Below are positions 21,563 to 40,460 of a stretch of 64,000 nucleotides of DNA, one piece after another (the stretch's first letter is position 1; every line of letters starts with the position of its first letter). The stretch is from a virus. The stretch is taken from positions 1-64,000 of the IMG/VR virus record IMGVR_UViG_3300043598_000012; one strand, 5' to 3'. Both the position numbers and the translations under genes were made by a program. The notes under the pieces were generated by a model, which had not been told where the DNA came from, made no database searches, and saw only the letters and a list, made by a program, of their open reading frames with translations.

Positions 21563-22159
21563 ATGCGCATGAAGAAGGGGTCCCTCGTCGTTGTGGAGGG
21601 GCTCGACTCAACAGGAAAGACGACGCTCGTGGACGCTCTAGCAGAGCACGTCCACGGCATCACGGCGGTGCACTCGCCCAGCGGTGGCGGTGAATTGGGC
21701 CAGGAGATCTACGAGCTCACCGAGCGGCCCAGGCCAATGGAGGGGCTTACTCGTCAGTTCTTACATCTTGCGGCCCACGTTGAGATTTACCAGAACACAG
21801 TAATCCCTGCCCTCTCGCAGAGCGCGGTCGTGATGGACAGGAACTGGTGTTCTACTTACGCCTACGGGATCGCAGGAGGCGTGCTGAAGAGCACCCCCAT
21901 CTTCTCAGCCGATTGGTATGACACCGTGCAGTACCCTGCTCAGGGACAGGTGCCAGATCTCGTCGTGCTCTGCTTGGAGCCTCATCGAGACGACCGCCAC
22001 AACACGCCGGAGCTCGAAGCTGCGTACCTTGATCTCAAGCGGAGGCTCGACAAGGACCCCGCTCTCAAGCACGTCCGGATCATGCCCAAGCTCAGCAAGC
22101 GGGCACAGCTCATCGCTTTGATGCAGATGTGCCAGGAAGCCAACCTCACAAGGAGCTAG
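21563..22159 (+). CDS. tmk: thymidylate (dNMP) kinase
   Basis: VEGLDSTGKTT, MDR...STYAYG, PDL. Confidence 0.9.
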   Translation: MRMKKGSLVVVEGLDSTGKTTLVDALAEHVHGITAVHSPSGGGELGQEIYELTERPRPMEGLTRQFLHLAAHVEIYQNTVIPALSQSAVVMDRNWCSTYAYGIAGGVLKSTPIFSADWYDTVQYPAQGQVPDLVVLCLEPHRDDRHNTPELEAAYLDLKRRLDKDPALKHVRIMPKLSKRAQLIALMQMCQEANLTRS

Positions 22160-22161
22160 CG

Positions 22162-23268
22162 ATGCACGAGTTCGTAGGCGAGGTCAATGAGGTGTACCCC
22201 GCCATGCTGCAAGCGGTGTTCAAGTTCGGCGAGCGTGTGCCGTCGAGAGTCGCCCCCACCATCGAGCTGCACCCCCTCGTGGCCGAGTTCGAGAACCCTC
22301 GTCGGCGTCTCGTCACCTCGTACGGCAGGGCAGTCAACGTGCCGTTCATGCTGGCTGAGGTGGTGCACATCCTCAACGGGCGAGAAGACCTCGCCTTCCT
22401 CGACCAGTTCAACAGCCAGGTCAAGGAGTACAGCGACGACGGTGTGCGCTTCAATGCTGCCTACGGACACCGGCTCCGTCACGCACACGGCTACGACCAG
22501 GTCAGGGATGTCATCAAGCTCCTCAAGCGGGACCGGGGTACCCGTCAGGCGACGCTCACGATCTGGCACCCAGACGACCGCCATCACGAGCTTGTGCACG
22601 TCGAGTCGCACAACGGCGGTGTCGGTGATGGATGGAGCAAGGAAGAACCTCGCCAGGTCAAGGACCGGGCCTGCAACCTGCTCGCCCACCTGATGATCCG
22701 GGATGGTGTGCTCAACTGGATGCAGGTCATGCGGAGCAATGACGCCATCTGGGGGCTCCCCTACAACCTCATGCAATGGACCTACCTCATGGAGTACATC
22801 GCCAACGAGGTGGGCGTGGAGCTCGGCGTCTACCGGCATATCGCCGACAGTTTCCACATCTACGACTACCACGAGGACGAGGCAAGCAAGGTCGCGCCCT
22901 TCGACCTCTACGAGCATCAGGGCCTGCGCTCTCGTTCGCATGCTCCGATGATCGCTGACGAATCTGCGTTGGAAGCAGCGGTCGAGCTCGCCAACCATGG
23001 TTGGAGCAGCGTTCATCACCCCGGCAACGTTCCTCAGTGGGTGATCGACTTTGGCCAGATCTGGTCAAGCTGGCGCTCCTATAAGGAGCTCGACGATGCC
23101 GGAGCCCAGCATCAACTGACACGCGCCAACGATCAGATCTTCGCAGCGGCGACTTATCGCTTCTACTGGTCCAACCGCTGGCACAAGCAGGACCCCGGTC
23201 ATCCGCGCCCAGACACCGTCAGAGCCGCATGGGGTTCGACCATCGGTGACTGGATCATGGCGTCATGA
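22162..23268 (+). CDS. thymidylate-synthase homologue, probable dUMP hydroxymethylase
   Basis: YSDDG...AYG.R, DQ, TRQA, catalytic C in DRACN, MRSND..WGLPYN, SFHIY. Confidence 0.85.
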   Translation: MHEFVGEVNEVYPAMLQAVFKFGERVPSRVAPTIELHPLVAEFENPRRRLVTSYGRAVNVPFMLAEVVHILNGREDLAFLDQFNSQVKEYSDDGVRFNAAYGHRLRHAHGYDQVRDVIKLLKRDRGTRQATLTIWHPDDRHHELVHVESHNGGVGDGWSKEEPRQVKDRACNLLAHLMIRDGVLNWMQVMRSNDAIWGLPYNLMQWTYLMEYIANEVGVELGVYRHIADSFHIYDYHEDEASKVAPFDLYEHQGLRSRSHAPMIADESALEAAVELANHGWSSVHHPGNVPQWVIDFGQIWSSWRSYKELDDAGAQHQLTRANDQIFAAATYRFYWSNRWHKQDPGHPRPDTVRAAWGSTIGDWIMAS

Positions 23269-23435
23269 CCACACTGCTTCAGATGCCTGTCGAGAAGTAC
23301 ATGGACGAGCGGGCGTTCGAGTTCGAGCAACTCGCCGCTCACGCCAAGACCAACCCGCTCGACCTACGGGTGGCGCTCTCCAACGTCTTCGTCTCTATGG
23401 CCCGCCAGGGTCACATGCGTACCCTCAAGAGGTGA
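23265..23435 (+). CDS. small hypothetical protein (56 aa)
   Basis: Hand-translated; ATGA coupling. Confidence 0.5.
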   Translation: MTTLLQMPVEKYMDERAFEFEQLAAHAKTNPLDLRVALSNVFVSMARQGHMRTLKR

Positions 23436-23469
23436 CTCGCCTAGTACACTAGAGGCTACAATGGTCCGT

Positions 23470-24009
23470 ATGGACCACGTCTCGATCTACGCCCTTTGCG
23501 ACCCTGGCGGAGAGATCCGTTATGTAGGAAAGACGATGCAGCCGGTGAGCAACCGACTATCCATGCACGTCGCTGAAGCCAAGAACCCTCGATACCAGTG
23601 TCACAGACTCAACTGGATTCGATCTCTGTTGGATCAGGGAGCTCGCCCGGAAGCTGTGCTGCTGATGAAGGTGCCTGTCGCAGAGTGGGAGCTCTGGGAG
23701 TGCACCTAGATTGCTGTGTTGCGGGAGGCAGGCTACCGCCTGGTTAACAACACAGACGGTGGGGACGGGCGTGTAGGCCCATTGAGCGAAGAGACGCGCC
23801 GCAAGATCGGCGAGGCCCATCGGGGGAAGCCGGTCAACCAGCCTGGCGTACCTTTGAAGGTGACGCACCGAGCGGCCATCAGCCGGTCGCTGGCAGGGAA
23901 CCAACGAGGCAAAGGGAACCGTGGCAAGAAGCTCAGTGAAGAGCACAAGCGGAAGATCGGCGAGGCGCGACGCCGAGCCTACGAGCGCCAGAGGGCAGAA
24001 GCCAGGTGA
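23470..24009 (+). pseudogene. GIY-YIG/NUMOD3 homing endonuclease with in-frame amber stop
   Basis: IYAL.DP...IRYVGKT...RL..H; TAG at 23707-23709; frame continues as LVNNTDGGDG and two SEE..RKIGEA repeats. Confidence 0.8.
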
Positions 24010-27000
24010 TGCAGCGAAGGCGAAGGGCTCCAGGCTCGTTCACCTTCATTAGCTACGTGCACACCGATTATTCGTCACTAGACGGACTCGGTACCGTGCC
24101 TGAGTACGTCGAGAGGGCCAAGGCGGACGGCCAGGAGGCCCTGGCGATCACGGACCACGGCAACCTCTGTGGGCTCCCGGAGTTCTACAAGGAGTGCCGC
24201 AAGGCGGACATTGAACCAATCCTTGGTGAGGAGTTCTACTTCACCATCGACGCTGAACGCCACCGGCTAGAGACCAAGGGCAAGTCCACCAAGCACGAGG
24301 AAATGGCGGAGGCCGAGAGCGAGGGCCTGGGCCGCTACCACGTCGTGATCCTCGCCCGTGGGCAGCGAGGCTACGAGACGCTCTGCGAGCTCTCGACAGC
24401 CACGCACCACAACTTCTACGGCAAGCCGCTCCTCGACCGCAACATCGTCAACGAGCTCTCCGACAAGGACCGGGACAGCCTCGTGTGCCTCTCGGGCTGT
24501 GCGACCTCTGTGATCTCGAGAGCGGTGCTAGCAGGCGACATGCAAGGTGCTGCCCGACACCTCATCTGGTGGCGTGAGATGTTCCCGCACTTCTACATCG
24601 AGCTTCAGCACCACGACACCGACTTCGATCGAGAGATCAACCGAGGGCTCTTGCGGCTCGCCAAGCGGTACGAGGTGCCCATCGTCGTCACCAACGACCC
24701 GCACTACGCCGTGCCAGAGGACCATGAGCATCATGACGCGCTGCTTGCCATCCAGACGGCCAGCGACATCGACGACCCCGAACGTTTCGCCTTCTCCGGC
24801 TCCGGCTACCACCTCCGTACCGAGCGGGAGATGCGGGAGGCCTTCTCTCGCTATGGGTCTGAGGTCTGGAAGCCAGGCATCCTCAACACGCAGGTGGTGG
24901 CTAAGCTTTGCCACACCAGGATCAAGGACTGGGAGAGCAAGACCTGGCACATCCCCAAGTTCCCTGACGTTGAAGACAGCCAAGCCTTCCTCCAGAAGTT
25001 GACCATCAAGGGGCTCAAGGAGCTGGGTCGGTTCAGCGACAGAGAGTACGTCAAGCGCGCCAAGTACGAGCTGGGCGTCTTCGAGGAGGTGGGCATAGCC
25101 GACTTCCTACTCATCACCTGGGACATCATCGAGGAGGCCAGGCGGCTTGGCATCGGTGTAGGTCCTGGGCGAGGCTCCGTGTGTGGAACCCTCGTTGGCC
25201 AGACCATCCGTCTCCACAAGATCGATCCGATCAAGTACGAGCTGCGGTTCGACCGCTTCTTGAACCCCGCTCGCCCAAAGATGCCCGACATCGACACCGA
25301 CTTCAGCCAGGAGCGGCGGGAGGAGCTCTTCCCCTACATCATCAGGAAGTACGGCGCCGAGAACGTGGTGACTGTCTGCGCCTACCAGACGCTGAGGCTC
25401 AAGAGCGCCTTCCAGTCCATGGCCCGAGCCTACGGCATCGAGTGGAACGAGCGGCAGAAGCTGACTAAGCTCCTCGCCAACGACGACGAGAACAGCATCG
25501 ACCTCCTGCCCGACGAGCTCCGTGAGGCACACCCCGAACTGGCTTCACGCATGCTTCGGCTCTCGGGCACCAAGAAGGGTGTCAGCCAGCACCCAGCCGG
25601 AGTGATCATTGCTGACCCCAAGGATCGTATTGCCAAGATGGTCCCAGAGATGTGGATCGCCTCCAGCAAGCGGATGGTTGGCCAGTACGATCTCTTGGCA
25701 GCAGAGGCAATGCACCTGCTCAAGCAGGACCTACTTGGGCTCCGCACGATCGACACCATCGAGCACAGCGTCGATCTCATCGAGCAGAGCACAGGTGAGG
25801 TGCTAGATCCTGACTCGTGGGTGCCAGACGACGAGCCAGGTGACGACAAGGTCTGGGAGATGCTGGCGGAGGGTCGCACAGGTGGCGTGTTCCAGATGGA
25901 GGGACCGGCCAACCAGCAGGGTTGTCGAGAGGTGCAGCCCAATTGCTTTGAAGACGTGGTGAGCATCACCGCGCTCTACCGCACCGGCGCCATGTCGGCG
26001 GGCTTTCCCAAGGTGTTCAATGAGAACCGCCGTAAAGGCACCATCGACTTCATCCACCCTGACCTAGAGCCTATCCTGGGCCACACCTCTGGCGTGGTGC
26101 TCTACCAGGAGCAGGTCATGGACATGGGGGAGTTCCTCGCTGGGTTCGACATGGTACAGGTAGACGATATCAAGGACGCCATCAAGAAGAAGGATCCCAA
26201 GGTCTTCGCCATCATCTCTCCCCTGTTCATCAGGGGTTGCATGGAGCACAGCGGGATGAGTGAGTCGGTAGCCAAGGAGATCTGGCGTTACATCGAGGGC
26301 TATGCGGGGTATGGCTACAACCGGTCGCATGCCGTGGCCTACACCATGCTGACCTACCAGACAGCTCGACTCAAGGCTCTTTACCCCCTAGAGTTCCTCA
26401 CAGCTCTGCTCCGCACGGTCAAGGGCTCCTCCAAGGAGGCCAAGGCCAAGCGAGAGGGCTACATGAGGGAGCTCATGGAGTACGGCTACACGATGCTGAC
26501 TCCTTGCATCAACCGCTCTGACGAGCTCGCCACACCAGACGTCGAGCACGAGGGTGTCAGGTTTGGACTCTCAGACATCGCTGGCGTAGGTCACAAGGCC
26601 GCCAGCAAGATCGTTGATGGGCGCCCCGAGGGAGGCTACACGTCGGTCAAGACGCTGATGGCGGTGGCCAACAACACCGGCACCATGGACCACCTGCACG
26701 ACGCCTGTGCCCTGGAGGTGCTCGGGGCTCCAGGAGACCTTAACGTAGCAGAAGAGAAGCTCAACTGGCAGTTCGTCGACCGCATGGCAACTTACCGAGA
26801 GAAGTACGCGCTCAAGGTGCGGTTGCCCGTCGAGAACAAGAACGACAAGTGCCTGATCATCGGGGAGATCCGCAAGATCACTCGGGGCACTACCAAGGGC
26901 AACAAGCCATACGTCACCTGGCACCTTCAGTGGGACATCACGCACACGTACGATATCCGTCTGTGGAGCGGGACCGACTCGCTCTGGAAGCTCAACGAGG

Positions 27001-27095
27001 GATCCGTGGTGGCTGTGCAGGGTGAGTGGGAACCGACATGGCATAACCTGAGCGTTGGTCGGTCCAAGCAGGTCAAGATCATCAAGGCCATTTGA
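24006..27095 (+). CDS. dnaE: DNA polymerase III alpha subunit
   Basis: PHP HTDYS.LDG, TDHG, NDPHY; GPGRGS; PDIDTDF; HPAG; YQEQ; YNRSHA; C-terminal OB fold. Confidence 0.97.
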   Translation: MMQRRRRAPGSFTFISYVHTDYSSLDGLGTVPEYVERAKADGQEALAITDHGNLCGLPEFYKECRKADIEPILGEEFYFTIDAERHRLETKGKSTKHEEMAEAESEGLGRYHVVILARGQRGYETLCELSTATHHNFYGKPLLDRNIVNELSDKDRDSLVCLSGCATSVISRAVLAGDMQGAARHLIWWREMFPHFYIELQHHDTDFDREINRGLLRLAKRYEVPIVVTNDPHYAVPEDHEHHDALLAIQTASDIDDPERFAFSGSGYHLRTEREMREAFSRYGSEVWKPGILNTQVVAKLCHTRIKDWESKTWHIPKFPDVEDSQAFLQKLTIKGLKELGRFSDREYVKRAKYELGVFEEVGIADFLLITWDIIEEARRLGIGVGPGRGSVCGTLVGQTIRLHKIDPIKYELRFDRFLNPARPKMPDIDTDFSQERREELFPYIIRKYGAENVVTVCAYQTLRLKSAFQSMARAYGIEWNERQKLTKLLANDDENSIDLLPDELREAHPELASRMLRLSGTKKGVSQHPAGVIIADPKDRIAKMVPEMWIASSKRMVGQYDLLAAEAMHLLKQDLLGLRTIDTIEHSVDLIEQSTGEVLDPDSWVPDDEPGDDKVWEMLAEGRTGGVFQMEGPANQQGCREVQPNCFEDVVSITALYRTGAMSAGFPKVFNENRRKGTIDFIHPDLEPILGHTSGVVLYQEQVMDMGEFLAGFDMVQVDDIKDAIKKKDPKVFAIISPLFIRGCMEHSGMSESVAKEIWRYIEGYAGYGYNRSHAVAYTMLTYQTARLKALYPLEFLTALLRTVKGSSKEAKAKREGYMRELMEYGYTMLTPCINRSDELATPDVEHEGVRFGLSDIAGVGHKAASKIVDGRPEGGYTSVKTLMAVANNTGTMDHLHDACALEVLGAPGDLNVAEEKLNWQFVDRMATYREKYALKVRLPVENKNDKCLIIGEIRKITRGTTKGNKPYVTWHLQWDITHTYDIRLWSGTDSLWKLNEGSVVAVQGEWEPTWHNLSVGRSKQVKIIKAI

Positions 27096-27463
27096 TGGCA
27101 AGGTGCCTTTACACTTACCCCTCTCAGGATCGATGCATGTTCACCGGCTGCGGGGAAGGTGAGGATTTCTGCCCTGCCCACAGGATTATTATCAGAGAGC
27201 AGCGCAGCGAGCAGAAGCGGCTAGAGCGTAAGCGTCAGGAAACGGTTGAGAGGCGTCGCAACAAGAAGCCGGAGGTACCGATGGCAGTCGAGCGGCGCCC
27301 ACCTGTGATCGGTCCTCCTGGAGACCCCACTGCACCCTACTGCACCTGCAAGGGCAGAACAGCAGACCACGAGCCGTGCACCAACTGCGGAAAGCCGCAC
27401 TTCATGGACTGGCGAGAGAGCAAGCTCAAGAAGAAGGAGACCGCTAGTGGCAACCAAGGATAA
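27095..27463 (+). CDS. Cys-rich hypothetical protein
   Basis: C..C...C..H and CTC...CTNC. Confidence 0.55.
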   Translation: MARCLYTYPSQDRCMFTGCGEGEDFCPAHRIIIREQRSEQKRLERKRQETVERRRNKKPEVPMAVERRPPVIGPPGDPTAPYCTCKGRTADHEPCTNCGKPHFMDWRESKLKKKETASGNQG

Positions 27464-28481: not shown

Positions 28482-28737
28482 GCTCCGCAAGTGGTGGAGG
28501 CTTAGAAACTCAAGGCCCGTCTACGTCTCGCTGTACGGCTCTGATGGCGAGGTGGCAGGGCAGTTGGTGCCCTTCTACAGGGGATCCAATGTGGATGAGA
28601 TCATGTTCACAAACATGCCAACATGCACGATAGAGGCCGTGTATGTCAATGGTAAGGAGATCCCGATGTTCTTCCCACGCACACTGAACCGTGGCCAGTC
28701 TATCTTCTGGCGAGGCGAGGAATTTCACATTGGGTGA
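28474..28737 (+). CDS. small protein resembling the 6751 tail protein
   Basis: YVSLY, EVAG, SN...I.F.NMP.CT shared with the 6751 product. Confidence 0.55.
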   Translation: MRRLRKWWRLRNSRPVYVSLYGSDGEVAGQLVPFYRGSNVDEIMFTNMPTCTIEAVYVNGKEIPMFFPRTLNRGQSIFWRGEEFHIG

Positions 28738-29050: not shown

Positions 29051-29343
29051 GTGCCCCAGCTGCAAGAGTGAGTACCCGGAGAGGGGCAACAAGGTTCGCT
29101 ACGACGCTGGCGATGCATTCCGCCACAAGGATTGTGACGATCCATTTCATTACGTACGAGACCAGCACTCTCCTGCGATCATGTCTCAGCACCGGGAGAG
29201 CGACATGCGGGTGCACACCAACCTCTCCTTCAGCCTTTACGGCTCGCGCATCCATGTCGAGCAGGCCTTGAAGGATCTCAGGCGGCTGTTGGAGCTGAAC
29301 GGCTATCGAGATGCCAAGATCAGCGGGTTGGTCACCTCACTCA

Positions 29344-30246
29344 GTGGATCCTGATAAGAAGCTCCTCTCCAAGCTCGTAAGGGCTATGAAGAACACGGAG
29401 CAGGATCCTCTGCGCCCGCTCATCGACGAGTACCTCGTGAAGCGGGAGCGGCGGGACCTACGCTCCAAGCGCCTGAAGGAGTACAGGGTTCCTCTTCTAC
29501 CGGACGTGCGGCCAGGTGGGCGTCTCTCTCCCAGCGCCATCTGCGGCTGTAAGCGGCTCGCTGCGTTCAAGTACGCCGGTGTGCAGGGCGACGAGAGGAT
29601 CGACCCTGACACTGAGTTGATCTTCGACGACGGCAACTGGCGGCACCACCGTTGGCAGGCTACCTTCCTCGACATGGAGGCCTTGCTCGGGCGAGAGCGG
29701 ATCCGTGTGCTCGGGATCGAGGATCGTGTCGGCGACGAGCGGCTTCACATTGCAGGTTCACTAGACGTCTTGCTGGCTATCAAGGTGCGACGAGGCAACG
29801 GGATGGTGTGGGAGAAGTACCTCATTGACATTAAGGGGATCAACACCTACGGGTTCAGCCGCATCACCATGGACAACGCGGCCAAGTCGGAGCACGTGCG
29901 GCAGGTCATCACTTACTGCAAACTGCGGCAGATTCGCAGAGGGTTGCTGCTCTACGAGAACAAGAACAGCAACGAGATCCGGGTCTTTCAGGTGCCGTTC
30001 AACCAGAAGCTCTGGCAGGAGGTCGAGGACTGGTCTTTGGAGGTGCTCGACGCCTTGGAGCACAAGCGGCTACCCCCGATGCACCCCGAGTGCGAGGGAG
30101 GCACCTACCTGTGGGAGAAATGCCCTTACCGTCGGCTCTGCTACGGCATGGAGCCAGCTGAGGCGAGGCGTGAGACCTACGTACACTTCAAGGGTGTCGA
30201 CGAGGCTTGGGCGGCTGGCCACGAGGATTGGGAGGAGCGGGGTTGA
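29344..30246 (+). CDS. Cas4-like PD-(D/E)XK exonuclease
   Basis: SPS....C.R, GSLD, DIKG, Q...Y, C-terminal C...CPY...C. Confidence 0.8.
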   Translation: MDPDKKLLSKLVRAMKNTEQDPLRPLIDEYLVKRERRDLRSKRLKEYRVPLLPDVRPGGRLSPSAICGCKRLAAFKYAGVQGDERIDPDTELIFDDGNWRHHRWQATFLDMEALLGRERIRVLGIEDRVGDERLHIAGSLDVLLAIKVRRGNGMVWEKYLIDIKGINTYGFSRITMDNAAKSEHVRQVITYCKLRQIRRGLLLYENKNSNEIRVFQVPFNQKLWQEVEDWSLEVLDALEHKRLPPMHPECEGGTYLWEKCPYRRLCYGMEPAEARRETYVHFKGVDEAWAAGHEDWEERG

Positions 30247-30641
30247 GCAAGCGAGCGTTCTATGGGGAGATTGACGAAGAGCTGGGTTGGTATTGGCTTT
30301 CACCGTCACCTGTTCCTGGCAACCCTCCTTATGCCGAGCTGATGAAGCTTGGCGAGCTGCCTTCCATCGAAACGCAGATCTGTCGTTGGATGGAACACCT
30401 GGCAACTAAGGGCGCCGTTTTCACCGCCGAAGGCACTCTCAAGAAGATCGAGGAGGAGATCGGCGAGCTGAAGGATGCCCCCGACGATCCAGAAGAGGTG
30501 GCAGACATCATCATCGCAGCCATCGTCTTCTTCCATCAGAGTGGACATCGAAATCTTGGCGCTGAGCTGTGCAAGAAGATGCGCAAGAACGAGGCTCGCA
30601 CTTGGGCCATCCAACCAGATGGGAGTTTCCACCATGTCTGA
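30243..30641 (+). CDS. MazG-like all-alpha dNTP pyrophosphohydrolase
   Basis: KIEEEIGEL, EEVADI, KM.KN..R.W....DG...H. Confidence 0.8.
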   Translation: MSKRAFYGEIDEELGWYWLSPSPVPGNPPYAELMKLGELPSIETQICRWMEHLATKGAVFTAEGTLKKIEEEIGELKDAPDDPEEVADIIIAAIVFFHQSGHRNLGAELCKKMRKNEARTWAIQPDGSFHHV

Positions 30642-31161
30642 GGTTTTGCACAGCGATCAGCCAGGCGACATCTCAGGGCCTTCACAAATGGGCGTCGGCA
30701 TGCGAGTACCTGCCATCGTGTTTGACATCGATGGTGTGCTGTGCGACTCGGCCCAGAGCATCGCAGATGCCATCGAGGCAGCTCATGCCGTTGCTGAGCA
30801 TGTCGACTGGATCGAGTGGAACAAGGGCGAATTCGCCTGCCACCCCGAGTACGTAGCCTTGGCTCAGCTACTCGCTCAGGCGGACGTGGCGATCATCCTG
30901 CTCACAGCCCGCCAGGAGCCTTCAAGGGAAGTCACGGAGTTGTGGCTCCAGAAGCACAGCATCCCCTTCGATGAGTTGCTCATGCGACCCATGGACCACG
31001 ACTACTTCACCTGGAAGCAGGATGCTCTCTTGGCCTTGCGGAGCTCCGCATTTGACGTAAAGGTGGTGCTGGAGGATTCCTCCGCACACGTCGCTGCCAT
31101 TCGCCGAGAGGTCGAGCTGCCGGTGATCCACGTGCAGAACGTGGGGAGTCACCTCCAGTAG
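30634..31161 (+). CDS. HAD phosphatase (PseT/PNK phosphatase-like)
   Basis: FDIDGVL, LTAR, T..WL, LLMRP, K...ED. Confidence 0.85.
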   Translation: MSEVLHSDQPGDISGPSQMGVGMRVPAIVFDIDGVLCDSAQSIADAIEAAHAVAEHVDWIEWNKGEFACHPEYVALAQLLAQADVAIILLTARQEPSREVTELWLQKHSIPFDELLMRPMDHDYFTWKQDALLALRSSAFDVKVVLEDSSAHVAAIRREVELPVIHVQNVGSHLQ

Positions 31162-31163
31162 CC

Positions 31164-31352: not shown

Positions 31353-31540
31353 GGACGCCAGGGGCGCCGCCGACTCCTTCGCCCTGGCCCGCATGCTCGA
31401 ACTGTTCGCCGCGGTCGATGATGTATGCTCTGAGGACGACGCATTCGCCCCCGACAAGTTGCGCATGGGCCTAGGGAGGATTTACAGAGCATGGAAAATC
31501 TGTCGGGCGGAGTTGGATCCCAACTTCAATGCTGAACGTG

Positions 31541-31972
31541 ATGGACTGGCTAAGGCGGAAGGCGGAGCAGTCAGTCATGGAGCAGGAGGAACCGATGCTA
31601 CCATGCACACTTCTCATGCACCTGTTCTACGGCCCCGATATCGACGGAAGGTCAGAGCCCGCCCGTGATCAACGAGAGCAATTGGCCAAGGCCTTATGTG
31701 CCACATGCGAGCAGCGGGTTCCCTGCCTTAGACGAGCGGTGCGGAACAGGGAGAATCTAGGTGTACAGGGCGGCATGGGCGAAGGAGAGCGAAGAGCTTA
31801 CCTTCAGCACCTCAAGGATGAAGGTTACGAGAACTGTCCAGAGGATGATGTCGAGTTGTACGCATCACTTAGAGAGTTTTACCAGAAACACGAAGGCCGC
31901 TACATACATACGCTGGAGTTGGATGTGATGGCTGAGTGGGAAGCTTATCATTGGATGCTAGAGTCCGAATGA
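31541..31972 (+). CDS. whiB: WhiB-family transcription factor
   Basis: C...LF...AKALC..C.....C...A.....GVQGG....ERR. Confidence 0.85.
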   Translation: MDWLRRKAEQSVMEQEEPMLPCTLLMHLFYGPDIDGRSEPARDQREQLAKALCATCEQRVPCLRRAVRNRENLGVQGGMGEGERRAYLQHLKDEGYENCPEDDVELYASLREFYQKHEGRYIHTLELDVMAEWEAYHWMLESE

Positions 31973-32451: not shown

Positions 32452-32458
32452 TGGTGGG

Positions 32459-33004
32459 GTGCGGACGTGTCCCAAGTGTGGTCAGACCAAGCCTGAGTCG
32501 TGCTTCTACCAGAGTAAGAAGACCAACGGTTGTAGAGCGTGCGAGCGTTTGGCTGCTGGCAAGTACAAGAGGAAACTGACGCCTGAGCGTAGGGCAGAGA
32601 TCAACGCTAGAGCTCGTCAGCGACACCAAGAGCGCCGGAAGGATCCTGAGTACGTAGAGGCCAGGAACGCAAGAGCGAGGGCGCAGAGCCGAGCAGCACG
32701 AGAGGACCCTGTGCGTCGAGCTGCCATAGCGGCAGCCACTAGAAGTCGCAACCTGTTGAAGGCCCACGGCATGCAGGAGGAGGACTTCGACGAGCTCTGC
32801 GAACTGCAAGGTGGCGTCTGTGCCTTGTGCGACGGGATCCCGAGTGGCCGCGGCCCGAACAAGTTCTTGCACGTAGACCACGATCACACTTCTGGTGTGC
32901 TGAGGATGCTCCTGTGTAGCAACTGCAACACGGCTCTCGGGCTCATGAAAGACAACCCTGATCTGCTTCGAAAGGCAGCCGAGTACTTGGAGATCTTCGC
33001 ATGA
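32459..33004 (+). CDS. endonuclease VII-family HNH homing endonuclease
   Basis: C..C, VDHDH..G..R.LLC..CN..LG...D; leaderless TATAGT-N6-GTG. Confidence 0.88.
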   Translation: MRTCPKCGQTKPESCFYQSKKTNGCRACERLAAGKYKRKLTPERRAEINARARQRHQERRKDPEYVEARNARARAQSRAAREDPVRRAAIAAATRSRNLLKAHGMQEEDFDELCELQGGVCALCDGIPSGRGPNKFLHVDHDHTSGVLRMLLCSNCNTALGLMKDNPDLLRKAAEYLEIFA

Positions 33005-33017
33005 TCCATGTGGCCCG

Positions 33018-33314: not shown

Positions 33315-33511
33315 TGGCTACTGCAACCAAGACCCTCAACTTCAAGATCAACCTGGCCCCACTCCGCTGGGCGCTGCGCCAGATCGACCACACGCTCACG
33401 ACTTGGTTCAACAAGCCATGGAACGTTGAGAACAAGTACGACCGACAGCGGCTGCGCGAGCTCGCCCAGAACGCAGTCGTGCTCGATGCTCTCGCTGATG
33501 ACGATGCCTGA
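33314..33511 (+). CDS. hypothetical protein
   Basis: TGATG coupling. Confidence 0.5.
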   Translation: MATATKTLNFKINLAPLRWALRQIDHTLTTWFNKPWNVENKYDRQRLRELAQNAVVLDALADDDA

Positions 33512-33807
33512 GCCCACCAAGCGGGAGATCAACCGGGGCATCGCCAGGGGGGCTCGTTGCCCCAACTGTCGAGCCTTCTGGTCTTGGTGTGTCTGCTCTG
33601 CTGTGGAGCGAGCATCTGCCATGCGAGCCCTGCTGGAGGAGCAGGTGCTGCTCTTCCGAGAGGTGGCTCACTGTGCCTGGCACCTCCTCGACGATGGTGG
33701 TGAAGTCGAGGGCGATGATGAGATGTGGCAAGGATCCAAGCGGGATGCCGACAGACTCTCGGATGCGCTCAACGACCTAGAGGCGAGTGGCTGGGACGCA
33801 CACCCTG

Positions 33808-34764
33808 ATGCCTGACTTCCTGCCTGATGGTGAAGAGCGCTTCGAGGAGCTCGTGGAGTTCATGCTCCACATGCACAGCAGCCGGGACCTCGATCCGCTG
33901 TACCCAGTGCTGCGCAAGCTCCAGAACAACTTCAACCGAGAGCAGGGGCTCTGGTTCAGCTTCCTCTACGTGGCGTGGTACAACCTGCCTTCGGCTTGGG
34001 CAGCGTTCAACATGTCTACCTACCCGACCGAGCTGCTACCTCTGTGGCTGGACCCCAAGTGGCCGACCGGCACAGAGCGTCGAGCCAACCGTGGTGGCAA
34101 GGTGGCCGAACACATCCAGGACTACATGCTCAAGATCGCGGGGAGCCGTAGTCAGTACCGCTGGTACACCAAGGACTTGGTGCTGGATGATCTTGATCAA
34201 GCAACCAAGGAGATCAACTGGTACACGCTCAACGAGCGCATCCAGTCACTCTTCATGAACGGTCGTTGGGCGGGATACAAGCACTGCGAGGTGCTGGCCA
34301 AGGTCAACGGCATCCCAGTGCTAGCTCCCCACATGGGTCACGCCAACAGTAGCGGACCTCGCCAAGGTCTTGCTATGATCTACGATTGCAGCGAGCTGAC
34401 TGGCAACGACCCAGGCACCATCGCTGTGCTCGATGAGATGAGCGCGGACCTGACCTTCCAACTCGACCAAGCTCTCCCCGGCTTGAACCTGGAGATAGAG
34501 GACGTGGAGACGATCCTCTGCAACTGGAAGTCGCTGATGAAGGGCAAGTACTACGTCGGTCACGACATCGACGAGCTGCAAGAGCAGATCCTCCGAGCAG
34601 AGGAGCGTGGCATCCTTTCGAAGGAGTCCTCGCGCTACCTGTGGCGGGCTCGCAAGGCCGTCTTGCCGCACGAGTACCTCGGTGAACTGGGAGGATGGGA
34701 GGGCGTAGACCGACGGCGCATGGCTGCGTACAAAGACACTGGAAGGATTGAGGTGCGATCGTGA
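33808..34764 (+). CDS. amino-acid:DNA transferase (aGPT-Pplase2/AADT family)
   Basis: DLDPLY, Y..WYN, TERR, GRW..YK..E, SSGPR.GL, ETILC..K, YYVGHDIDE. Confidence 0.82.
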   Translation: MPDFLPDGEERFEELVEFMLHMHSSRDLDPLYPVLRKLQNNFNREQGLWFSFLYVAWYNLPSAWAAFNMSTYPTELLPLWLDPKWPTGTERRANRGGKVAEHIQDYMLKIAGSRSQYRWYTKDLVLDDLDQATKEINWYTLNERIQSLFMNGRWAGYKHCEVLAKVNGIPVLAPHMGHANSSGPRQGLAMIYDCSELTGNDPGTIAVLDEMSADLTFQLDQALPGLNLEIEDVETILCNWKSLMKGKYYVGHDIDELQEQILRAEERGILSKESSRYLWRARKAVLPHEYLGELGGWEGVDRRRMAAYKDTGRIEVRS

Positions 34765-34894
34765 AGAAGTTCGAACCGCCCCGTGAGGGCGACAGCTGGA
34801 GGGTGTACACCAAGCGAGAGGCCAAGCGTCTCCGCACCACCCGGCGTCGTGTCATCCGGGCCATGGCCAAGAACAACCGGAAGGTGGTCGAGAA

Positions 34895-35143
34895 GTGAGG
34901 CTCATCACAGCAGCCATAGGAGGTGCCATCGCCGGAGGAGTCATGGCGTGCTCTGCCAGTTCTGGCGCTGATGTCTCTGACGTCAAGACGGACAGCTTCG
35001 AGCTGGACCTTCGAGAGCCAGGCATCCAGGTCGCGGACTTCGTGAACGAGCACGGCAAGCCGTGCACCGTCGTCGGCGAGCGTGCAGGTGATGGCGGAGA
35101 CGGCGTGTCGCTCTCCCTTTCCTGCGACTGGAGTGCTCGATGA
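34895..35143 (+). CDS. putative lipoprotein
   Basis: Signal peptide with VMAC lipobox-like site. Confidence 0.5.
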   Translation: MRLITAAIGGAIAGGVMACSASSGADVSDVKTDSFELDLREPGIQVADFVNEHGKPCTVVGERAGDGGDGVSLSLSCDWSAR

Positions 35144-35442
35144 GCTCTCGAGAGATCGTCGCAGTCATCCTCATGGTGGCAGCAGCAGCGGTGCTCGCCA
35201 ACGGAGGACACGTGTGGGCCGCTGCTGCTGTGCTCATCTTCGGCGGCATCATCGCAGCAGCGAGTGGGAGCTCTGGGCACGATGGCTGAGGGCTACGACG
35301 TAGAGCTCTCTGACGCCAACGGCGAGATCTTCACCGCCACGCTCTACTCCGAAGATCAGTTCGAGCGGGTCAAGCGAGCCAACGAGTCGGGACTACTCAA
35401 GGTGCGCACATTCATCATCGAGCACAACAAGAGAGAGGTCTG

Positions 35443-35829
35443 ATGAGCGCTGTTCGAGAGCGTCCGCCGGTCATGCGCCATGGCCAGACCACCTCGTTTC
35501 ACGTGGGCGAGGCCAAGGGCTACATGACCGTCAACCTGTCGGAGGATGGCAGGCCCATCGAGATCTTTCTGAAGCTCGCCAAGCAGGGTTCCACCCTCTC
35601 CGGCATCTTCGACTCGCTCGCCATCCTCATCAGCCACTCGCTACAGCGGGGCGTTGGCGTCGAAGAGATCTGCGACTCGCTCATCGGGCTCCGCTTCGAG
35701 CCTTGGGGGCAGACCAACGACCCTGACATCCCTGAGGCACGTTCGATCAGCGACTACATCGGTCGTCGGCTCGCGCTCGACTACGTGGACTGGGAGGTCG
35801 CTTCCGAGCTCCTCCAGAAGCACCAGTGA
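35443..35829 (+). CDS. stand-alone TSCPD domain (class II RNR C-terminal-like)
   Basis: GYMTVN..DGRP.EIF....KQGST..G, S.SLQ.GV, RFEP.G.T....I..A.SI.DY. Confidence 0.85.
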   Translation: MSAVRERPPVMRHGQTTSFHVGEAKGYMTVNLSEDGRPIEIFLKLAKQGSTLSGIFDSLAILISHSLQRGVGVEEICDSLIGLRFEPWGQTNDPDIPEARSISDYIGRRLALDYVDWEVASELLQKHQ

Positions 35830-36386
35830 CCTGCATCGCAGCCGTCGCTGGTGAAGACGGCACCGTGTACATGGGCGGGGACTCCGCAGGGATCGACTCG
35901 CGTCTCGACCTTGGCATCCACGCTGAGACCAAGGTGTGGCGCTCAGGTCCGGCGCTCTTCGGGGCGTGTGGCTCCTTCCGAGTCGCCCAGCTCATCCGCA
36001 ACAAGATGCACGTGCCGACCTACGAGCCGGGTGACGATGTCTGGCCCTACCTGGTCGGCCCGTTCATCGACGCCATGCGTGAGTCGCTGGCCATGGGCGG
36101 AGCCCTGGCGCAGTGGCTGGAAGATGCTAACGAGTCGATGTTCGGCAGCTTCGTGGTGGCCGTCGGCGGCAGGGTCTTTGAGATGTACGAGGACTTCGGC
36201 GTCGGAGAGCTTGTGCACGGCTACGCCGCAGTGGGTTGCGGAGCTCCGATGGCTGTCGGTTCCTTGGCGACCACCGAGCACCTTCGAGTAGGCCCCAAGC
36301 GTCGAGTCGAACTTGCTCTAGAGGCAGCGGAGCGACACAGCGGAGGGGTGCGAGGCCCCATGCATATTGAGAAGCTCCCTGCATGA
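35826..36386 (+). CDS. Ntn-hydrolase, HslV/proteasome-beta-like peptidase
   Basis: M-T-C-I N-terminal Thr, GGDS, K, G.CGS.R, YAAVG.G...A.G.L. Confidence 0.8.
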   Translation: MTCIAAVAGEDGTVYMGGDSAGIDSRLDLGIHAETKVWRSGPALFGACGSFRVAQLIRNKMHVPTYEPGDDVWPYLVGPFIDAMRESLAMGGALAQWLEDANESMFGSFVVAVGGRVFEMYEDFGVGELVHGYAAVGCGAPMAVGSLATTEHLRVGPKRRVELALEAAERHSGGVRGPMHIEKLPA

Positions 36387-36964
36387 CTCTTCCTGACCAC
36401 GAGATCGAAGCGGCGGTGCGCAGCCACAACCTGGGCATCGAGCCATTCAACGAGGAACAGCTCCAGCCTGCGAGCTACGACTTGCGGTTGGATCGCTACT
36501 TCCGCCGAGTGCGTGGTGCAGCTTCTGAGGCGCGGCTCGTGGACCCCGCTAAGGACCAGGACTGGACTGTCGAGGCGCACCCTGTGCACCGTGGCGGCAG
36601 GCCTATGATCGGCTTGGAACCTAACAAGATGCTGCTGGCGAGCACTGTGGAGCGGATCCGGATGCCCGCCCACCTCGTCGCCCGTGTTGAGGGCAAGAGC
36701 TCGCTGGCTCGGCTAGGCCTGTTCGTGCACGTCACGGCAGGCTTCATCGACCCAGGCTTCGAAGGTCACATCACGCTGGAGCTCTACTGCGGCAACGGGC
36801 GGGGCATCATCCTCTACCCCGGCATGCCCATTGCTCAGATCGCTTTCGACCGGATGGACTCGCCACCCCGCCAGGTGTACGCCGGGAAGTACCAGGGCTC
36901 CAACGAGCCTGGGCCAGTGCCTTCTAGGTACCACCAGAACTTCCCACTCAAGGAGATGACATGA
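36383..36964 (+). CDS. dcd: dCTP deaminase
   Basis: QLQPASYDLRL, EGKSSLARLGL.VH.TAGFIDPGF.G.ITLE, GKYQG. Confidence 0.95.
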   Translation: MTLPDHEIEAAVRSHNLGIEPFNEEQLQPASYDLRLDRYFRRVRGAASEARLVDPAKDQDWTVEAHPVHRGGRPMIGLEPNKMLLASTVERIRMPAHLVARVEGKSSLARLGLFVHVTAGFIDPGFEGHITLELYCGNGRGIILYPGMPIAQIAFDRMDSPPRQVYAGKYQGSNEPGPVPSRYHQNFPLKEMT

Positions 36965-37206
36965 ATAACGGCGACAAGGTCAAGGACAAGATCACGGGCT
37001 TTGAGGGCACCGTGACCGGGCGGGTCGAGTACATCACCGGCTGCAACCAGCTGTTGGTGCAGCCATCTTCCAAGGACGGCACTGAGATGCCCAAGTCGTC
37101 TTGGATCGACGAGGACCGTTGCGAGCTCGTCGTGGCCATGTTCGTCGACCCCAACACGCTCCAGAAGCGCAACCCTGGCTTCGGCGAGCCTGCTCCGATC
37201 CGATGA
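36961..37206 (+). CDS. small conserved phage protein (SH3-like)
   Basis: GDKVKD.ITGF.G.VT.R..Y.TGC....VQP...W.DE.R. Confidence 0.7.
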   Translation: MNNGDKVKDKITGFEGTVTGRVEYITGCNQLLVQPSSKDGTEMPKSSWIDEDRCELVVAMFVDPNTLQKRNPGFGEPAPIR

Positions 37207-37587
37207 AGTACTTCATGAGCGATGCCGAGATCGCCAACCGCAAGAAGGCTCGTTGCGACATCCTCGATGCCGTCAACAAGGGCCGGGACAAGCCTCTTCG
37301 CATGCGCCACATCCAGCGAGCAGCGCACGTCGCCCGCCATCAGAAGCTCGTCAAGAAGAACGTGCTGGTGGCAGTGGGGTTCAACCCAACCAGCCGGTGA
37401 GGGCGGAGCCAGGGGATCGAGTTCTGTTGCGAGGAGATCACCCCTACTGCGGGCATACAGGTTCCGTAACAGAACCTTTGCACTCTACGGCAGCAGGTCA
37501 GGCCATCAAAGTGCGTGTTGATGGTGGACCTGAGGTCTACGCCTTCGGCGATCAATGGACGGGCACACCCAAGGGAAGAAGTGTTCA

Positions 37588-38514
37588 GTGAGAGTTCACC
37601 TGGAAGGGTTCGGGCTTATGGGCAGCCTGCTGGCCCCTCACCTAGAGGACGTTGGTATCGAATTCACTTTCCACGACATCGGTGAAGAGCGAGTGCAGAG
37701 CTGGCGGGCAAGCACCGGCGCCATCATGCCTTTTGGGGACGAAGACTCCATGCAAGGGTTGGAGGACTGGCGGCAGATGGTTCGCTGCAAGGGTACGTTC
37801 CGGGAGCTCTACCTACCACACATCCAGCGAGCTCGGTTCTGCTATTACAGCCAGAACCCTCCGCACGGTGGGGCCAAGTTTGGTGTGGAGGAGATCGCCA
37901 AGGTTGGCGGTGTGCGCATCAGCAACAAGCACAGCTTCCACATTGACGCTCAGCAGGTGGTAGAAATTGCCCGCAGCCACTACCGAAAGCAGCGTCTCGC
38001 CCATCGCCCATCCAAGAAGGCTGACGATGATCTGCTCATCGTGACGCATGGATGGCGTCCGAACACCATCGGCGCCTACTCGTGGGGTTGGAGTGCCATT
38101 GTTACTGCCAGGATGAGTGATGAATTGCAGATCGCCTTAGGCTTTGGGGAGGGTTGCTTCTACCTGCGCAACGGATATCAGGTTTGTTACCTTTACCCTG
38201 TGGGGCGGACGGGCGCCTTTTACGCAGGAACCACACTTGTGACTCAGAAGAACGGCCCCAAGGACCTCGACCCTGAGCCGCACTACAGGCGATGGGCAAA
38301 CCAGCTAGAGAACTTCTCTGGAGGCCACCTCGCTGTCCGAGAACTGCTTCCGAACACTCTGCGGCAAGCCTGGCGCCCTAAGCCTCGCGACGACCAGAGC
38401 GAGCTTGTATGGAGGCGAGGCAGCACGGTCTACTTCCGGCCTGCGGCAGGTAACGGGATCAGGCTTTTCCCGCTCTACCTCGACGCCCTGTTGGCCGAGC
38501 TCGGGGTACGATAG
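37588..38514 (+). CDS. FAD-dependent oxidoreductase (DAO/glycine-oxidase-like)
   Basis: N-terminal GFGLMG Rossmann motif, S..ASTG, AGTT, RP, GNG.R..P. Confidence 0.65.
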   Translation: MRVHLEGFGLMGSLLAPHLEDVGIEFTFHDIGEERVQSWRASTGAIMPFGDEDSMQGLEDWRQMVRCKGTFRELYLPHIQRARFCYYSQNPPHGGAKFGVEEIAKVGGVRISNKHSFHIDAQQVVEIARSHYRKQRLAHRPSKKADDDLLIVTHGWRPNTIGAYSWGWSAIVTARMSDELQIALGFGEGCFYLRNGYQVCYLYPVGRTGAFYAGTTLVTQKNGPKDLDPEPHYRRWANQLENFSGGHLAVRELLPNTLRQAWRPKPRDDQSELVWRRGSTVYFRPAAGNGIRLFPLYLDALLAELGVR

Positions 38515-38536
38515 TACAGAGCCGACTTAACCGGGA

Positions 38537-38785
38537 GTGCAAATGCCGAACGAAGAGAACTACGTGGACCGCACCTACAAGGTTAGGGAGAAGATCGCTC
38601 CTGGCCTGCATGAGGGCGTCACCTTCACGGTGCTACATCAAGACGACGCCGGATTGATCGTAGGGGTGCCCGAGGAGCGCCCAGTGGTGAAGGCTGAGGG
38701 GATCTCCAAGGAGGAGATGGACACCAACCACCGCATCCCCGTCTCCGCTCTCGGGAAGTGCGATGGGGTCACTGATGGCGAGTGA
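38537..38785 (+). CDS. hypothetical protein
   Basis: Coding-like ORF. Confidence 0.5.
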   Translation: MQMPNEENYVDRTYKVREKIAPGLHEGVTFTVLHQDDAGLIVGVPEERPVVKAEGISKEEMDTNHRIPVSALGKCDGVTDGE

Positions 38786-39293
38786 CATCCAGCCCATCAG
38801 TGGCGAGGAGTTTCGGCAGCTCGGCTACCTCCAGGAAGTCAACCGTCAGGTGCTGCATCCGCTCGGGCTCGCGCTCTACAACGACCAGGGTTGGAGCAGG
38901 GAGCGAGTCGAGAAGCTGCTCCAGGAGCAAGGTGTCCAGTTCGGCGAGGACGCCATCGACAACATCATGACCTTCCTGGCTCGTGCTGGCCTCATGGAGG
39001 AGCACATCGCCGGAGCTCTCGACGATCGGAGCGACCCCGAGGGTTGGCAGTTCGCTGTGCGAGCCGACCACCTCGAAGAGGACATGGCGGAGTTCACCCG
39101 CAAGCGGATCAACATCGAGGGTGAGTGGACCAGCCGGTCGCTCACTCGCATCGCCAACCTTGGCTACATCGTTCAGGAGGACATCCACGTCCCTGGCATG
39201 CAGCCGCTAGCCTTCGGCGAGGATGATGAGCCAGTTGACGATGAACCAGAAGTTGGTTCTGTCGATTCTGCCTCGCTTCCGGAGGGATCGTGA
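38775..39293 (+). CDS. conserved hypothetical phage protein
   Basis: EFR.LGYLQE.NR..LHPLGLAL motif. Confidence 0.65.
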   Translation: MASDIQPISGEEFRQLGYLQEVNRQVLHPLGLALYNDQGWSRERVEKLLQEQGVQFGEDAIDNIMTFLARAGLMEEHIAGALDDRSDPEGWQFAVRADHLEEDMAEFTRKRINIEGEWTSRSLTRIANLGYIVQEDIHVPGMQPLAFGEDDEPVDDEPEVGSVDSASLPEGS

Positions 39294-39616
39294 GCGAGCC
39301 CACCTACTCTAGAGAGGTGCTCGTCGACCTGTGCGAGCGGGCAGCTGTCCCTGTAGACCACTGGCACGACCGCGACTCAGCGGGGGCTCAGAAGCAGGTG
39401 GGCGAGGCCTTGATGCTCCTCAAGGCTGGGTGCGATTTCTCTATGAGCGAGGATCCCGTCACGGACGAGAAGACCGTCTGGATCAGGGTTGTCTACCCAG
39501 GGTTCAACGCCTTCGAGTGTGGTCGGGATCGTGCCGACGGATACTGGGATGATGACACCTTCTACATCCCCACCAACGTGCGGCTCGCTCGCTCAGAAGG
39601 CAAGGACTGGTACTGA
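39290..39616 (+). CDS. hypothetical protein
   Basis: W.DRDS..AQ.Q, FYIPT..RL....G.DWY; GTGA coupling. Confidence 0.6.
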   Translation: MSEPTYSREVLVDLCERAAVPVDHWHDRDSAGAQKQVGEALMLLKAGCDFSMSEDPVTDEKTVWIRVVYPGFNAFECGRDRADGYWDDDTFYIPTNVRLARSEGKDWY

Positions 39617-39894
39617 TGGGTCTCGTTGGCGCCATGGCCTACCCGCACGCGCTACGAGCAGGGCAGAAGGTGATCTGGGATCAGCGTGATGGTGTGGCGA
39701 CCGTCCTCGTGGTAAAGGACGTGAAGCGCATCACCGTCGAGCACGCTCGTCCGTTCTATGAGGGTAGGCACGGAGTCCGAGATGCCGACTTCACACATGT
39801 TGTGGTGAACTTCAAGGGGCTGCCATGGCCGGTGATCTTCGGGCACATGCAATCGGTGTCCGTGTTCGAACAGCAGTTCCGAGGAGATGACTGA
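39616..39894 (+). CDS. hypothetical protein
   Basis: Coupled on both sides. Confidence 0.5.
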   Translation: MGLVGAMAYPHALRAGQKVIWDQRDGVATVLVVKDVKRITVEHARPFYEGRHGVRDADFTHVVVNFKGLPWPVIFGHMQSVSVFEQQFRGDD

Positions 39895-40460
39895 TGAAGC
39901 GTTACATGTGTTACATCGTGGGAGAACCTGGCAGCGGCAAGACAACGCTGTGCCGAGAGTTCACATCTGACCTTCGCAAGAAGGTCAAGACTGTCCCCTA
40001 CGTGAGCTATACTCACTTCGGCAAGGAGACCATGGAGCTCGGCCACGATCGGGAGACATTCGGGGGTACTGATGCTCTCGGGATGGCTGCCCAGAACCAT
40101 GTGCTGGAGTTCCTGCGTAACGGACCTGGCGCCGAGTACCGCTACATCCTGGCGGAGGGGGACCGGCTTGCCAACGCCAAGTTCTTCGAGGCGGTGCGGG
40201 GCATGGGCATCGACCTGAACGTCTACGCCTTGCTACCTCCGGCCAAGGTCATCGAGCGTCGTCGAGCTGCCCGCAACGCATCCATTGGCAAGGAGCAGAA
40301 CGAGCGGTGGCTGAAGACGAGGGCCACCAAGGTTGCCAACATTGTCCACGATTGGGTTCCACCAGAGCATCGGCTGACCCAAAGACCAGAAGAGGTCCTT
40401 CGGATCATACTGGCAGACGATCCGGTGGCGAAGCAGTTGGCTCGGATGCGCGACTCCTAG
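39894..40460 (+). CDS. P-loop nucleotide kinase, candidate 5-hmdU DNA kinase
   Basis: GEPGSGKTT, F.GTD.L...Q, EGDRL....F, R..R....Q...W...R.TK. Confidence 0.75.
   Translation: MKRYMCYIVGEPGSGKTTLCREFTSDLRKKVKTVPYVSYTHFGKETMELGHDRETFGGTDALGMAAQNHVLEFLRNGPGAEYRYILAEGDRLANAKFFEAVRGMGIDLNVYALLPPAKVIERRRAARNASIGKEQNERWLKTRATKVANIVHDWVPPEHRLTQRPEEVLRIILADDPVAKQLARMRDS

Follow-up and report, generated by a model that had tools for sequence, protein, structure and literature searches.

Phages use thymidine hypermodifications to shield their DNA against nucleases, restriction enzymes among them, and the pathways are a source of DNA-labelling enzymes. The first 64 kb (hereafter the window) of IMG/VR virus record IMGVR_UViG_3300043598_000012, an 80,880-bp genome with direct terminal repeats (CheckV completeness 100%) that was assembled from a soil metagenome, carries genes for such a pathway and raises the question of which base is its end product. 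A first-pass annotation, made from the letters of the window, had read these genes as a thymidine hypermodification pathway that lacks its expected last enzyme, an acetyltransferase. The seven genes that it named are all present, intact and on the + strand, six of them with significant family matches and the seventh, a flavoenzyme, recognizable by its fold; family matches for the transferase, the kinase and the nucleotide-pool genes bear out the assignment of the set to thymidine hypermodification. The gene content, folds, catalytic residues, synteny, fusions and absence of tailoring enzymes described below are observations, from which we infer every substrate and product. Together they point, with modest confidence, to a pathway of two stages that most likely ends in free 5-aminomethyl-2′-deoxyuridine (5-NmdU).

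Pseudomonas phage PaMx11 makes the acetylated derivative of 5-NmdU (5-AcNmdU) by means of an amino acid:DNA transferase (AADT/PUGT, gp46), an NGTO flavoenzyme (gp47), an acetyltransferase (gp48), a 5-hydroxymethyl-2′-deoxyuridine (5-hmdU) DNA kinase (5-HMUDK, gp49) and a dUMP hydroxymethylase (gp51) (PMC8989533, PMC11472151). The reaction of gp47, in which the glycine adduct Nα-GlyT is converted to 5-NmdU, is established (PMC8989533, PMC11472151). Three genes of the window are candidates for the steps on DNA:

33787-34764, + strand: AADT (aGPT-Pplase2) (PF18724, E=3.2e-23); the ATG at 33808 may be the start
37555-38514, + strand: D-amino-acid oxidase (DAO)-fold flavoenzyme, type B (P0001), from its AlphaFold model and flavin adenine dinucleotide (FAD) motifs; probable start GTG 37588
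39894-40460, + strand: P-loop kinase (PF18751, E=1.2e-23)

The AADT and kinase matches come from hidden Markov model searches that the first-pass annotation had suggested. In the steps on polymeric DNA, 5-hmdU would first be phosphorylated at its 5-hydroxymethyl group by the P-loop kinase, and the AADT, through its cysteine and metal site, would swap the phosphate for the α-amine of an amino acid, with glycine as the default guess. The flavoenzyme would then oxidise the N-Cα bond of the adduct, and hydrolysis of the imine would release 5-NmdU together with a 2-oxo acid (glyoxylate with a glycine donor); any Nα-linked amino acid would end in 5-NmdU. The base would keep its cationic primary amine because no acetyltransferase acts afterwards. 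The modified bases of phages M6 and ViI likewise end in a cationic amine (PMC8989533).

The absence of tailoring enzymes was examined in six frames of the complete genome. There is no match at E<=1 to the GNAT acetyltransferase families PF00583, PF13508 and PF13673, and none to radical S-adenosylmethionine (radical-SAM) enzymes (PF04055), PALP-type pyridoxal phosphate (PLP) enzymes (PF00291) or Methyltransf_25, and tblastn of PaMx11 gp48 against the genome gives nothing below E=3. The same PF00583 search recovers gp48 from PaMx11 at E=2.6e-16, and Pfam picks up the GNAT, PALP and radical-SAM genes in those related loci that carry them. Pfam scans of ~90 open reading frames (ORFs) across the genome revealed no further tailoring enzyme. 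The first-pass observation that GNAT, PLP and radical-SAM genes are not recognizable in the window therefore extends to the whole genome, where it had proposed that a GNAT be sought. A PF00583 search of the actinophages CaiB (Gordonia), Phelemich (Mycobacterium) and Tonitrus (Rhodococcus) likewise found no GNAT.

Gene context was drawn from a comparison set of 49 IMG/VR loci whose AADTs are 30-41% identical to that of this genome and whose ORFs were clustered; a related-locus search with the oxidase alignment in viral, metagenome and genome contigs returned none. The canonical order in these loci is ParB-TET/JBP-AADT-oxidase-kinase-terminase. An oxidase is found in 39 of the 49, and its slot has two alternative occupants: type A, which is linked to gp47 in sequence (best E=2.4e-13) and includes Phelemich gp4, and type B, which is P0001-like. 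The type-B oxidase lies directly 3′ of the AADT in CaiB, Tonitrus, L033/34, L038, L041/55 and L051; in the present genome it lies between AADT and kinase, 2.8 kb from the former and 1.4 kb from the latter. Clusters c41 and c123, considered as genes between oxidase and kinase, proved to be overlapping-frame artefacts of the oxidase gene. Among the remaining loci, three end right after the AADT and four run from AADT to kinase without an oxidase.

GNAT genes are found in 2 of 33 related records and in none of the ten complete ones, and five complete genomes with a type-B oxidase are without one. Most often among the modules examined in this AADT clade, CaiB, Tonitrus and Phelemich included, AADT, oxidase and kinase occur as a trio with no GNAT (39 of the 49 loci), and in the present genome this trio is paired with a nucleotide-pool route to 5-hmdU rather than with TET/JBP, an arrangement that is new here. 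The absence of an acetyltransferase is real, and normal for this phage group rather than a gap; the expectation of an acetyltransferase as the last enzyme has to be given up. L047 has a GNAT immediately after the AADT, like PaMx11, and three loci (L052, L056 and L057) combine TET/JBP and AADT with a PALP-type PLP enzyme, a radical-SAM enzyme and a kinase, which amounts, as judged by sequence, to M6-like tailoring supplied by oxidation of T on the DNA instead of by a dUMP hydroxymethylase. Because the loci vary in this manner, the tailoring step is modular within a single AADT clade (none, oxidase, oxidase plus GNAT, or radical-SAM plus PLP enzyme), and the base should therefore be predictable from gene content.

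In phages, tblastn found P0001-like proteins only in Gordonia phages (gene 5 of CaiB and its relatives) and in Rhodococcus phage Tonitrus (gp8). CaiB and Tonitrus share a gene block of ParB, TET/JBP, AADT, kinase and the P0001-like protein. The terminase gene directly follows the module in CaiB and Phelemich, and other genes intervene in Tonitrus. The announcement of the Tonitrus genome lists gp8 as a hypothetical protein in a putative five-gene hypermodification system (PMC11955845).

An additional domain is found in two type-B proteins, which are natural fusions. In P0071 (456 aa) an oxidase domain 34% identical to P0001 is followed by a GNAT (PF00583, 32.6 bits, E=1.1e-7) that is 31% identical to PaMx11 gp48. 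P0182 (643 aa) joins an oxidase domain 30% identical to P0001 to a C-terminal P-loop kinase, which over 211 residues shares 30% identity with gp49, the validated 5-HMUDK (E=3e-30). On sequence grounds these fusions connect the type-B oxidase with the 5-hmdU pathway, and the GNAT fusion suggests that the product of the type-B oxidase is an acetylatable amine.

The flavoenzyme P0001 matches no Pfam or PHROG family, and its profile finds PDB sequences at E ~0.4 or weaker, through Rossmann N-termini only. An AlphaFold (AF2) model built from the alignment (pLDDT 90.3) matches D-amino-acid oxidase, glycine oxidase, iminodiacetate oxidase and the FAD domain of MnmC, with Foldseek E values down to 4e-13; VIA-align superposes it on DAO, glycine oxidase and MnmC with Z of 20-22 over ~285-298 residues at 11-14% identity. 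The label “FAD oxidoreductase” given in the first pass is right at the level of the fold because the model matches DAO, glycine oxidase and MnmC. The structure 8Z2O is absent from the 50 fold matches listed for the model. The start proposed in the first pass, GTG 37588, is favoured both by the Shine-Dalgarno-like AAGGGAAG upstream of it and by the homologues. The public gene call (P0004, 298 aa) starts at Met22 (37618) and loses part of the GxGxxG motif. An N-terminal fingerprint, HLEGMGxxGS...FTWHD (GxGxxG...D), is common to 14 P0001 homologues.

An exhaustive profile search of 1.84 billion representatives delimits the P0001 family to 214 clusters at E<=1e-3 (185 of them at E<=1e-30), and nearly all members are 275-340 aa long. 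By this sequence measure the family has sharp limits, with no gradual transition into the large DAO superfamily. At least 95% conserved across 155 representatives are G20, G23, D41, W50, T54, G55, P103, W177-G178-W179, Y212, G225, G272-W273-R274-P275, G301 and R303; the GxGxxG, D41, ASTG, THG, GWRP and GNG motifs are conserved in the same set. The GWRP arginine (R274) is 99% conserved and precedes the C-terminal FAD motif, GNG, by ~24 residues.

P0001 is a DAO-fold family separate from gp47, with a role that rests on fold, gene position and fusions. PaMx11 gp47 matches Pfam DAO at E=2.6e-15 and P0001 does not match it, and tblastn of gp47 against this genome gives no match. Of the PaMx11-like flavin step read into the locus in the first pass, the DAO fold thus stands and a recognizable sequence homology to gp47 does not. 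A candidate equivalence between P0001 W50 and the base-stacking W51 of gp47, taken from a MAFFT alignment, was dropped; hhalign pairs AWRASTG of P0001 with the GAGS...A FAD motif of gp47. The residues that form the base cage in gp47 (W51, Y180, Q182 and K268) could not be placed on P0001. Judged from its fold, gene position and fusions, P0001 is probably the oxidase of an amino-acid-thymine adduct. A separate flavoenzyme family in the gp47 slot, tied to the pathway by two natural fusions, is new here.

The AADT scores 83.1 bits on PF18724 (cut-off 26.2), with PaMx11 gp46 at 97.1 bits in the same type of search. In the structure of gp46, C247 is the nucleophile, E243 and T244 are metal ligands, and D24, E92, W146, K150, D262 and E265 form the donor and phosphate pocket (PMC11472151). 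When the AADT (P0002) was aligned with gp46 and three actinophage AADTs, the catalytic, metal and pocket residues were invariant, and D24, E92, W146, K150, E243, T244, C247, Y257, D262 and E265 of gp46 are all kept. The P-loop kinase falls into one cluster with the kinases of 46 related AADT modules, and this synteny makes it a candidate 5-hmdU DNA kinase. The helical partner HMUDK_hel (PF18723, as in PaMx11 gp50) has no six-frame match in this genome, CaiB, Phelemich or Tonitrus; the control, PaMx11, gives E=1.2e-42.

Several points weigh against free 5-NmdU as the end product. The searchable literature holds no chemistry for this phage or for any phage carrying this module, and in it 5-NmdU in phage DNA appears only as the PaMx11 intermediate. 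The kinase resembles the validated PaMx11 gp49 weakly (30% identity over 141 aa, pairwise E=2e-4), and gp49 has no match to PF18751, the family of the kinase in this genome. In the AADT, position 248 is Asn, where most relatives have Asp, and position 256 is Lys or Arg. In the AADT of YuA, Lys at 248 binds the glycine carboxylate and the pair of K248 and Y257 specifies glycine, and changing 248 together with the Y257 counterpart switches the donor preference between diamine and glycine (PMC13458397). The donor used here is uncertain because position 248 is not Lys as in the YuA enzyme, and by sequence it may be other than glycine. The hhalign alignment of gp47 with P0001 is confined to 35-48 residues of the Rossmann N-terminus, at a probability of 12-17%. 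R274 may be the counterpart of gp47 Arg242 (GIRP), the proposed binder of the adduct carboxylate (PMC11472151); this equivalence comes from one MAFFT alignment, which places GWRP on GIRP, and from motif position, the GIRP motif of gp47 standing at the same spacing from its C-terminal motif as GWRP from GNG, and the profile alignment ends before R274. Many ORFs, including six small ones between AADT and kinase, have no assignable function and could hide a new tailoring enzyme, and a host acetyltransferase is a possible further agent.

The AADT and oxidase observations bear on an alternative in which the donor is not glycine and the oxidation is of another kind, either at the base side to give 5-formyl-dU or such that an oxidised or decarboxylated adduct is retained, so that the final base would not be 5-NmdU. 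The pocket residue at 248 differs from that of glycine users, the donors of the Pplase2 family are varied (PMC13458397), and the oxidase family has no sequence link to gp47 past the FAD motif. However, N-Cα oxidation of any Nα-linked amino acid still gives 5-NmdU, the GWRP arginine that is typical of amino-acid-oxidising DAO enzymes is conserved as described, the fusion with a gp48-like GNAT implies an acetylatable amine, and type B replaces type A in one and the same gene slot. We consider this alternative unlikely.

A separate observation concerns the AADT pocket in the wider clade. All oxidase-linked AADTs have the pocket motif C-D...G-[RH]-Y-Y and the AADT of this genome has C-N...G-K-Y-Y, and in the oxidase-free loci L032, L035, L036 and L044, which run straight from AADT to kinase, the motif is C-G...G-D-Y-Y. 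Judging from these residues, the AADTs of oxidase-free loci, which represent only ~two independent lineages, may use a donor that is not an amino acid.

The ORFs without assignable function bear on another alternative, in which a host enzyme or a phage ORF so far unrecognised adds a further group (acetyl, methyl, formyl or other) to 5-NmdU, yielding 5-AcNmdU or a new base. Much of the genome is without assigned function, and some relatives do carry a GNAT (L047 and the fusion P0071). Against this stand the six-frame searches with their positive controls, which returned no GNAT, methyltransferase, PLP or radical-SAM gene; the CaiB and Phelemich modules, which reach the terminase without an additional gene (genes intervene in Tonitrus); and M6 and ViI, which stop at a terminal cationic amine. 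The first-pass annotation had suggested tailoring by a neighbouring ORF, and an ORF of 176 aa (38763-39293, + strand) between oxidase and kinase was considered as a hidden acetyltransferase. Its model (pLDDT 87.6) has five helices and two strands and matches no solved fold. The ORF is not a GNAT because this confident, mostly helical model resembles no known fold; the neighbouring-ORF idea was thus followed up for this ORF and its identity as a GNAT rejected. The 176-aa ORF belongs to a widespread small-protein family with invariant GYLQExNRxxLHPLGLAL and DxRxDPEG motifs. We regard further modification as rather improbable, and free 5-NmdU remains the preferred end product.

Further genes of the window bear on the source of 5-hmdU and its incorporation into DNA:

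21563-22159, + strand: deoxynucleoside monophosphate (dNMP; thymidylate-type) kinase (PF02223, E=2.4e-13)
22129-23268, + strand: thymidylate-synthase-family enzyme (PF00303, E=1.5e-21; phrog_5131, E=5e-66)
24006-27095, + strand: DnaE-like DNA polymerase III alpha (PF07733, PF02811, PF17657)
30207-30641, + strand: MazG-like all-alpha NTP pyrophosphohydrolase (PF04447, E=1e-6)
30475-31161, + strand: HAD-family phosphatase (PF25109, E=1.9e-7; PF00702)
36383-36964, + strand: dCTP deaminase, for dU-nucleotide supply (PF22769, E=6.6e-47; phrog_1663, E=1.8e-50)

The first-pass placement of the gene set holds, except that its left end at 21563 is the dNMP kinase and not the dCTP deaminase, which begins at 36383. 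An Asn or an Asp at the base-reading position separates thymidylate synthase (uracil-specific) from dCMP hydroxymethylase. The thymidylate-synthase homologue reads WGLPYN with Asn, in keeping with the GLPYN motif reported in the first pass, and has a C-terminal extension of ~120 aa. Among solved structures it is closest to the CMP hydroxymethylase MilA (75 bits), with thymidylate synthases at <=40 bits, and it is 31% identical to PaMx11 gp51; from these sequence relationships it is probably a dUMP 5-hydroxymethylase.

A six-frame search of the whole genome found neither TET/JBP nor ThyX, whereas TET/JBP is present in the three actinophage references (CaiB, Phelemich and Tonitrus). This leaves the nucleotide pool as the sole visible source of 5-hmdU. 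In this pre-replicative stage, the dCTP deaminase, aided by the MazG-like pyrophosphohydrolase, would lead to dUMP, which the thymidylate-synthase-family enzyme would convert to 5-hmdUMP. The dNMP kinase, whose substrate is suggested by its context, would carry 5-hmdUMP to 5-hmdUDP and, with host kinases, to 5-hmdUTP, and the phage DnaE-type polymerase, by its context the replicase that would incorporate 5-hmdUTP, would produce 5-hmdU DNA. The MazG-like protein may clear dTTP and dUTP, a role suggested by the dTTPase/dUTPase of phage 15599 (PMC13458397). The HAD-family protein may be a nucleotide or DNA-end phosphatase, and its membership in the pathway is uncertain.

The intactness of both gene groups also bears on the alternative that the post-replicative genes are inactive or otherwise used, and that virion DNA contains 5-hmdU or ordinary T only. 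In its favour, expression and modification are here predictions from the genes, and the three genes are spread over 6.7 kb, whereas in relatives they are adjacent. Yet all ORFs are intact, the catalytic residues are conserved, and the pool-route genes for 5-hmdU are present, and this alternative appears very improbable.

A more general and more tentative proposal, which we hold to be slightly less likely than not, makes free 5-NmdU the natural terminal DNA base in a large set of actinophages from soil. In some of them it would be made by the hitherto unannotated type-B flavoenzyme (~200 clusters, in the NGTO/gp47 slot, with the FAD motif as its sole sequence likeness to gp47-type oxidases), and the trio would combine with either a pool source of 5-hmdU, as here, or a TET/JBP source, as elsewhere. 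If true, 5-aminomethyluracil would be a natural genomic base and no longer a mere pathway intermediate, and a new family of DNA-acting flavoenzymes would gain a function. Cultured SEA-PHAGES isolates (CaiB and its relatives, Tonitrus and Phelemich) would then be ready test material.

The phage itself has no close cultured relative because megablast of the modification region against phage records gave no match and the DnaE-type polymerase is <=34% identical to any phage record. The G+C content is ~60%. Regulatory and DNA-binding genes near the nucleotide-metabolism genes are:

19185-19640, + strand: sigma-70 region-2 protein, phage-encoded
21201-21485, + strand: HU-type DNA-binding protein, phage-encoded
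31529-31972, + strand: WhiB-type regulator (PF02467, E=2.9e-11)

The WhiB-type regulator and the G+C content are, as sequence features, compatible with an actinobacterial host. Replication and recombination genes around the modification genes encode the polymerase III alpha, RecA, a Cas4-like exonuclease, an SNF2 helicase and three endonuclease VII paralogues; a RuvC-like match among them is weak (E=0.007, below the cut-off). The endonuclease VII-domain paralogues (PF02945, E=4e-20 to 6e-25) are located at 32459-33004 (+), 40480-40956 (+) and 48432-48890 (-), two of them flanking the modification genes, and may be homing-type or resolvase genes. Between AADT and dCTP deaminase, a protein of 186 aa (35826-36386, +; phrog_1040, E=1.7e-14) starts M-T-C-I-A-A-V...G-G-D-S and resembles an HslV/proteasome-type Ntn hydrolase with a Thr1 nucleophile, and it adjoins a stand-alone TSCPD-domain protein (35443-35829, +). 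No tie of either protein to the modification pathway could be demonstrated.

Compared with PaMx11, the genome shares a thymidylate-synthase-family hydroxymethylase (31% identity), an AADT with identical catalytic residues, a P-loop kinase and a short (~290-300 aa) DAO-fold flavoenzyme, and the predicted chemistry is equal up to 5-NmdU. It differs in lacking an acetyltransferase and a gp50-like HMUDK helical partner, in a flavoenzyme of another sequence family and a kinase of another Pfam family, and in having its genes dispersed, whereas those of PaMx11 are adjacent. With phage M6 of Pseudomonas, which makes 5-(2-aminoethyl)-2′-deoxyuridine (5-NedU) by means of an AADT, a radical-SAM isomerase, a PLP decarboxylase and a kinase, the genome has the first two post-replicative steps in common, but it contains no radical-SAM or PLP gene. 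The FAD domain of MnmC and the glycine oxidase ThiO (DAO/GR2) resemble P0001 in fold and FAD motifs, and the conversion of cmnm5U to nm5U in tRNA by MnmC is the RNA counterpart of the proposed reaction (PMC8989533); unlike these enzymes, to which it is 11-14% identical, P0001 has no Pfam DAO match, is shorter, and has a base in double-stranded DNA as its presumed substrate. The actinophage modules (CaiB genes 1-5, Tonitrus, Phelemich and the IMG/VR loci) share with this genome the AADT clade (36-41% identity) and the PF18751 kinase, and CaiB gp5 and Tonitrus gp8 are type-B oxidases 29-31% identical to its own, in genomes that likewise carry no GNAT. In those modules, however, 5-hmdU is made on DNA by TET/JBP and the genes stand in one block (adjoined by the terminase in CaiB and Phelemich), whereas the present genome has neither TET/JBP nor ParB and relies on a nucleotide-pool route of hydroxymethylase, dNMP kinase, dCTP deaminase and pyrophosphohydrolase.

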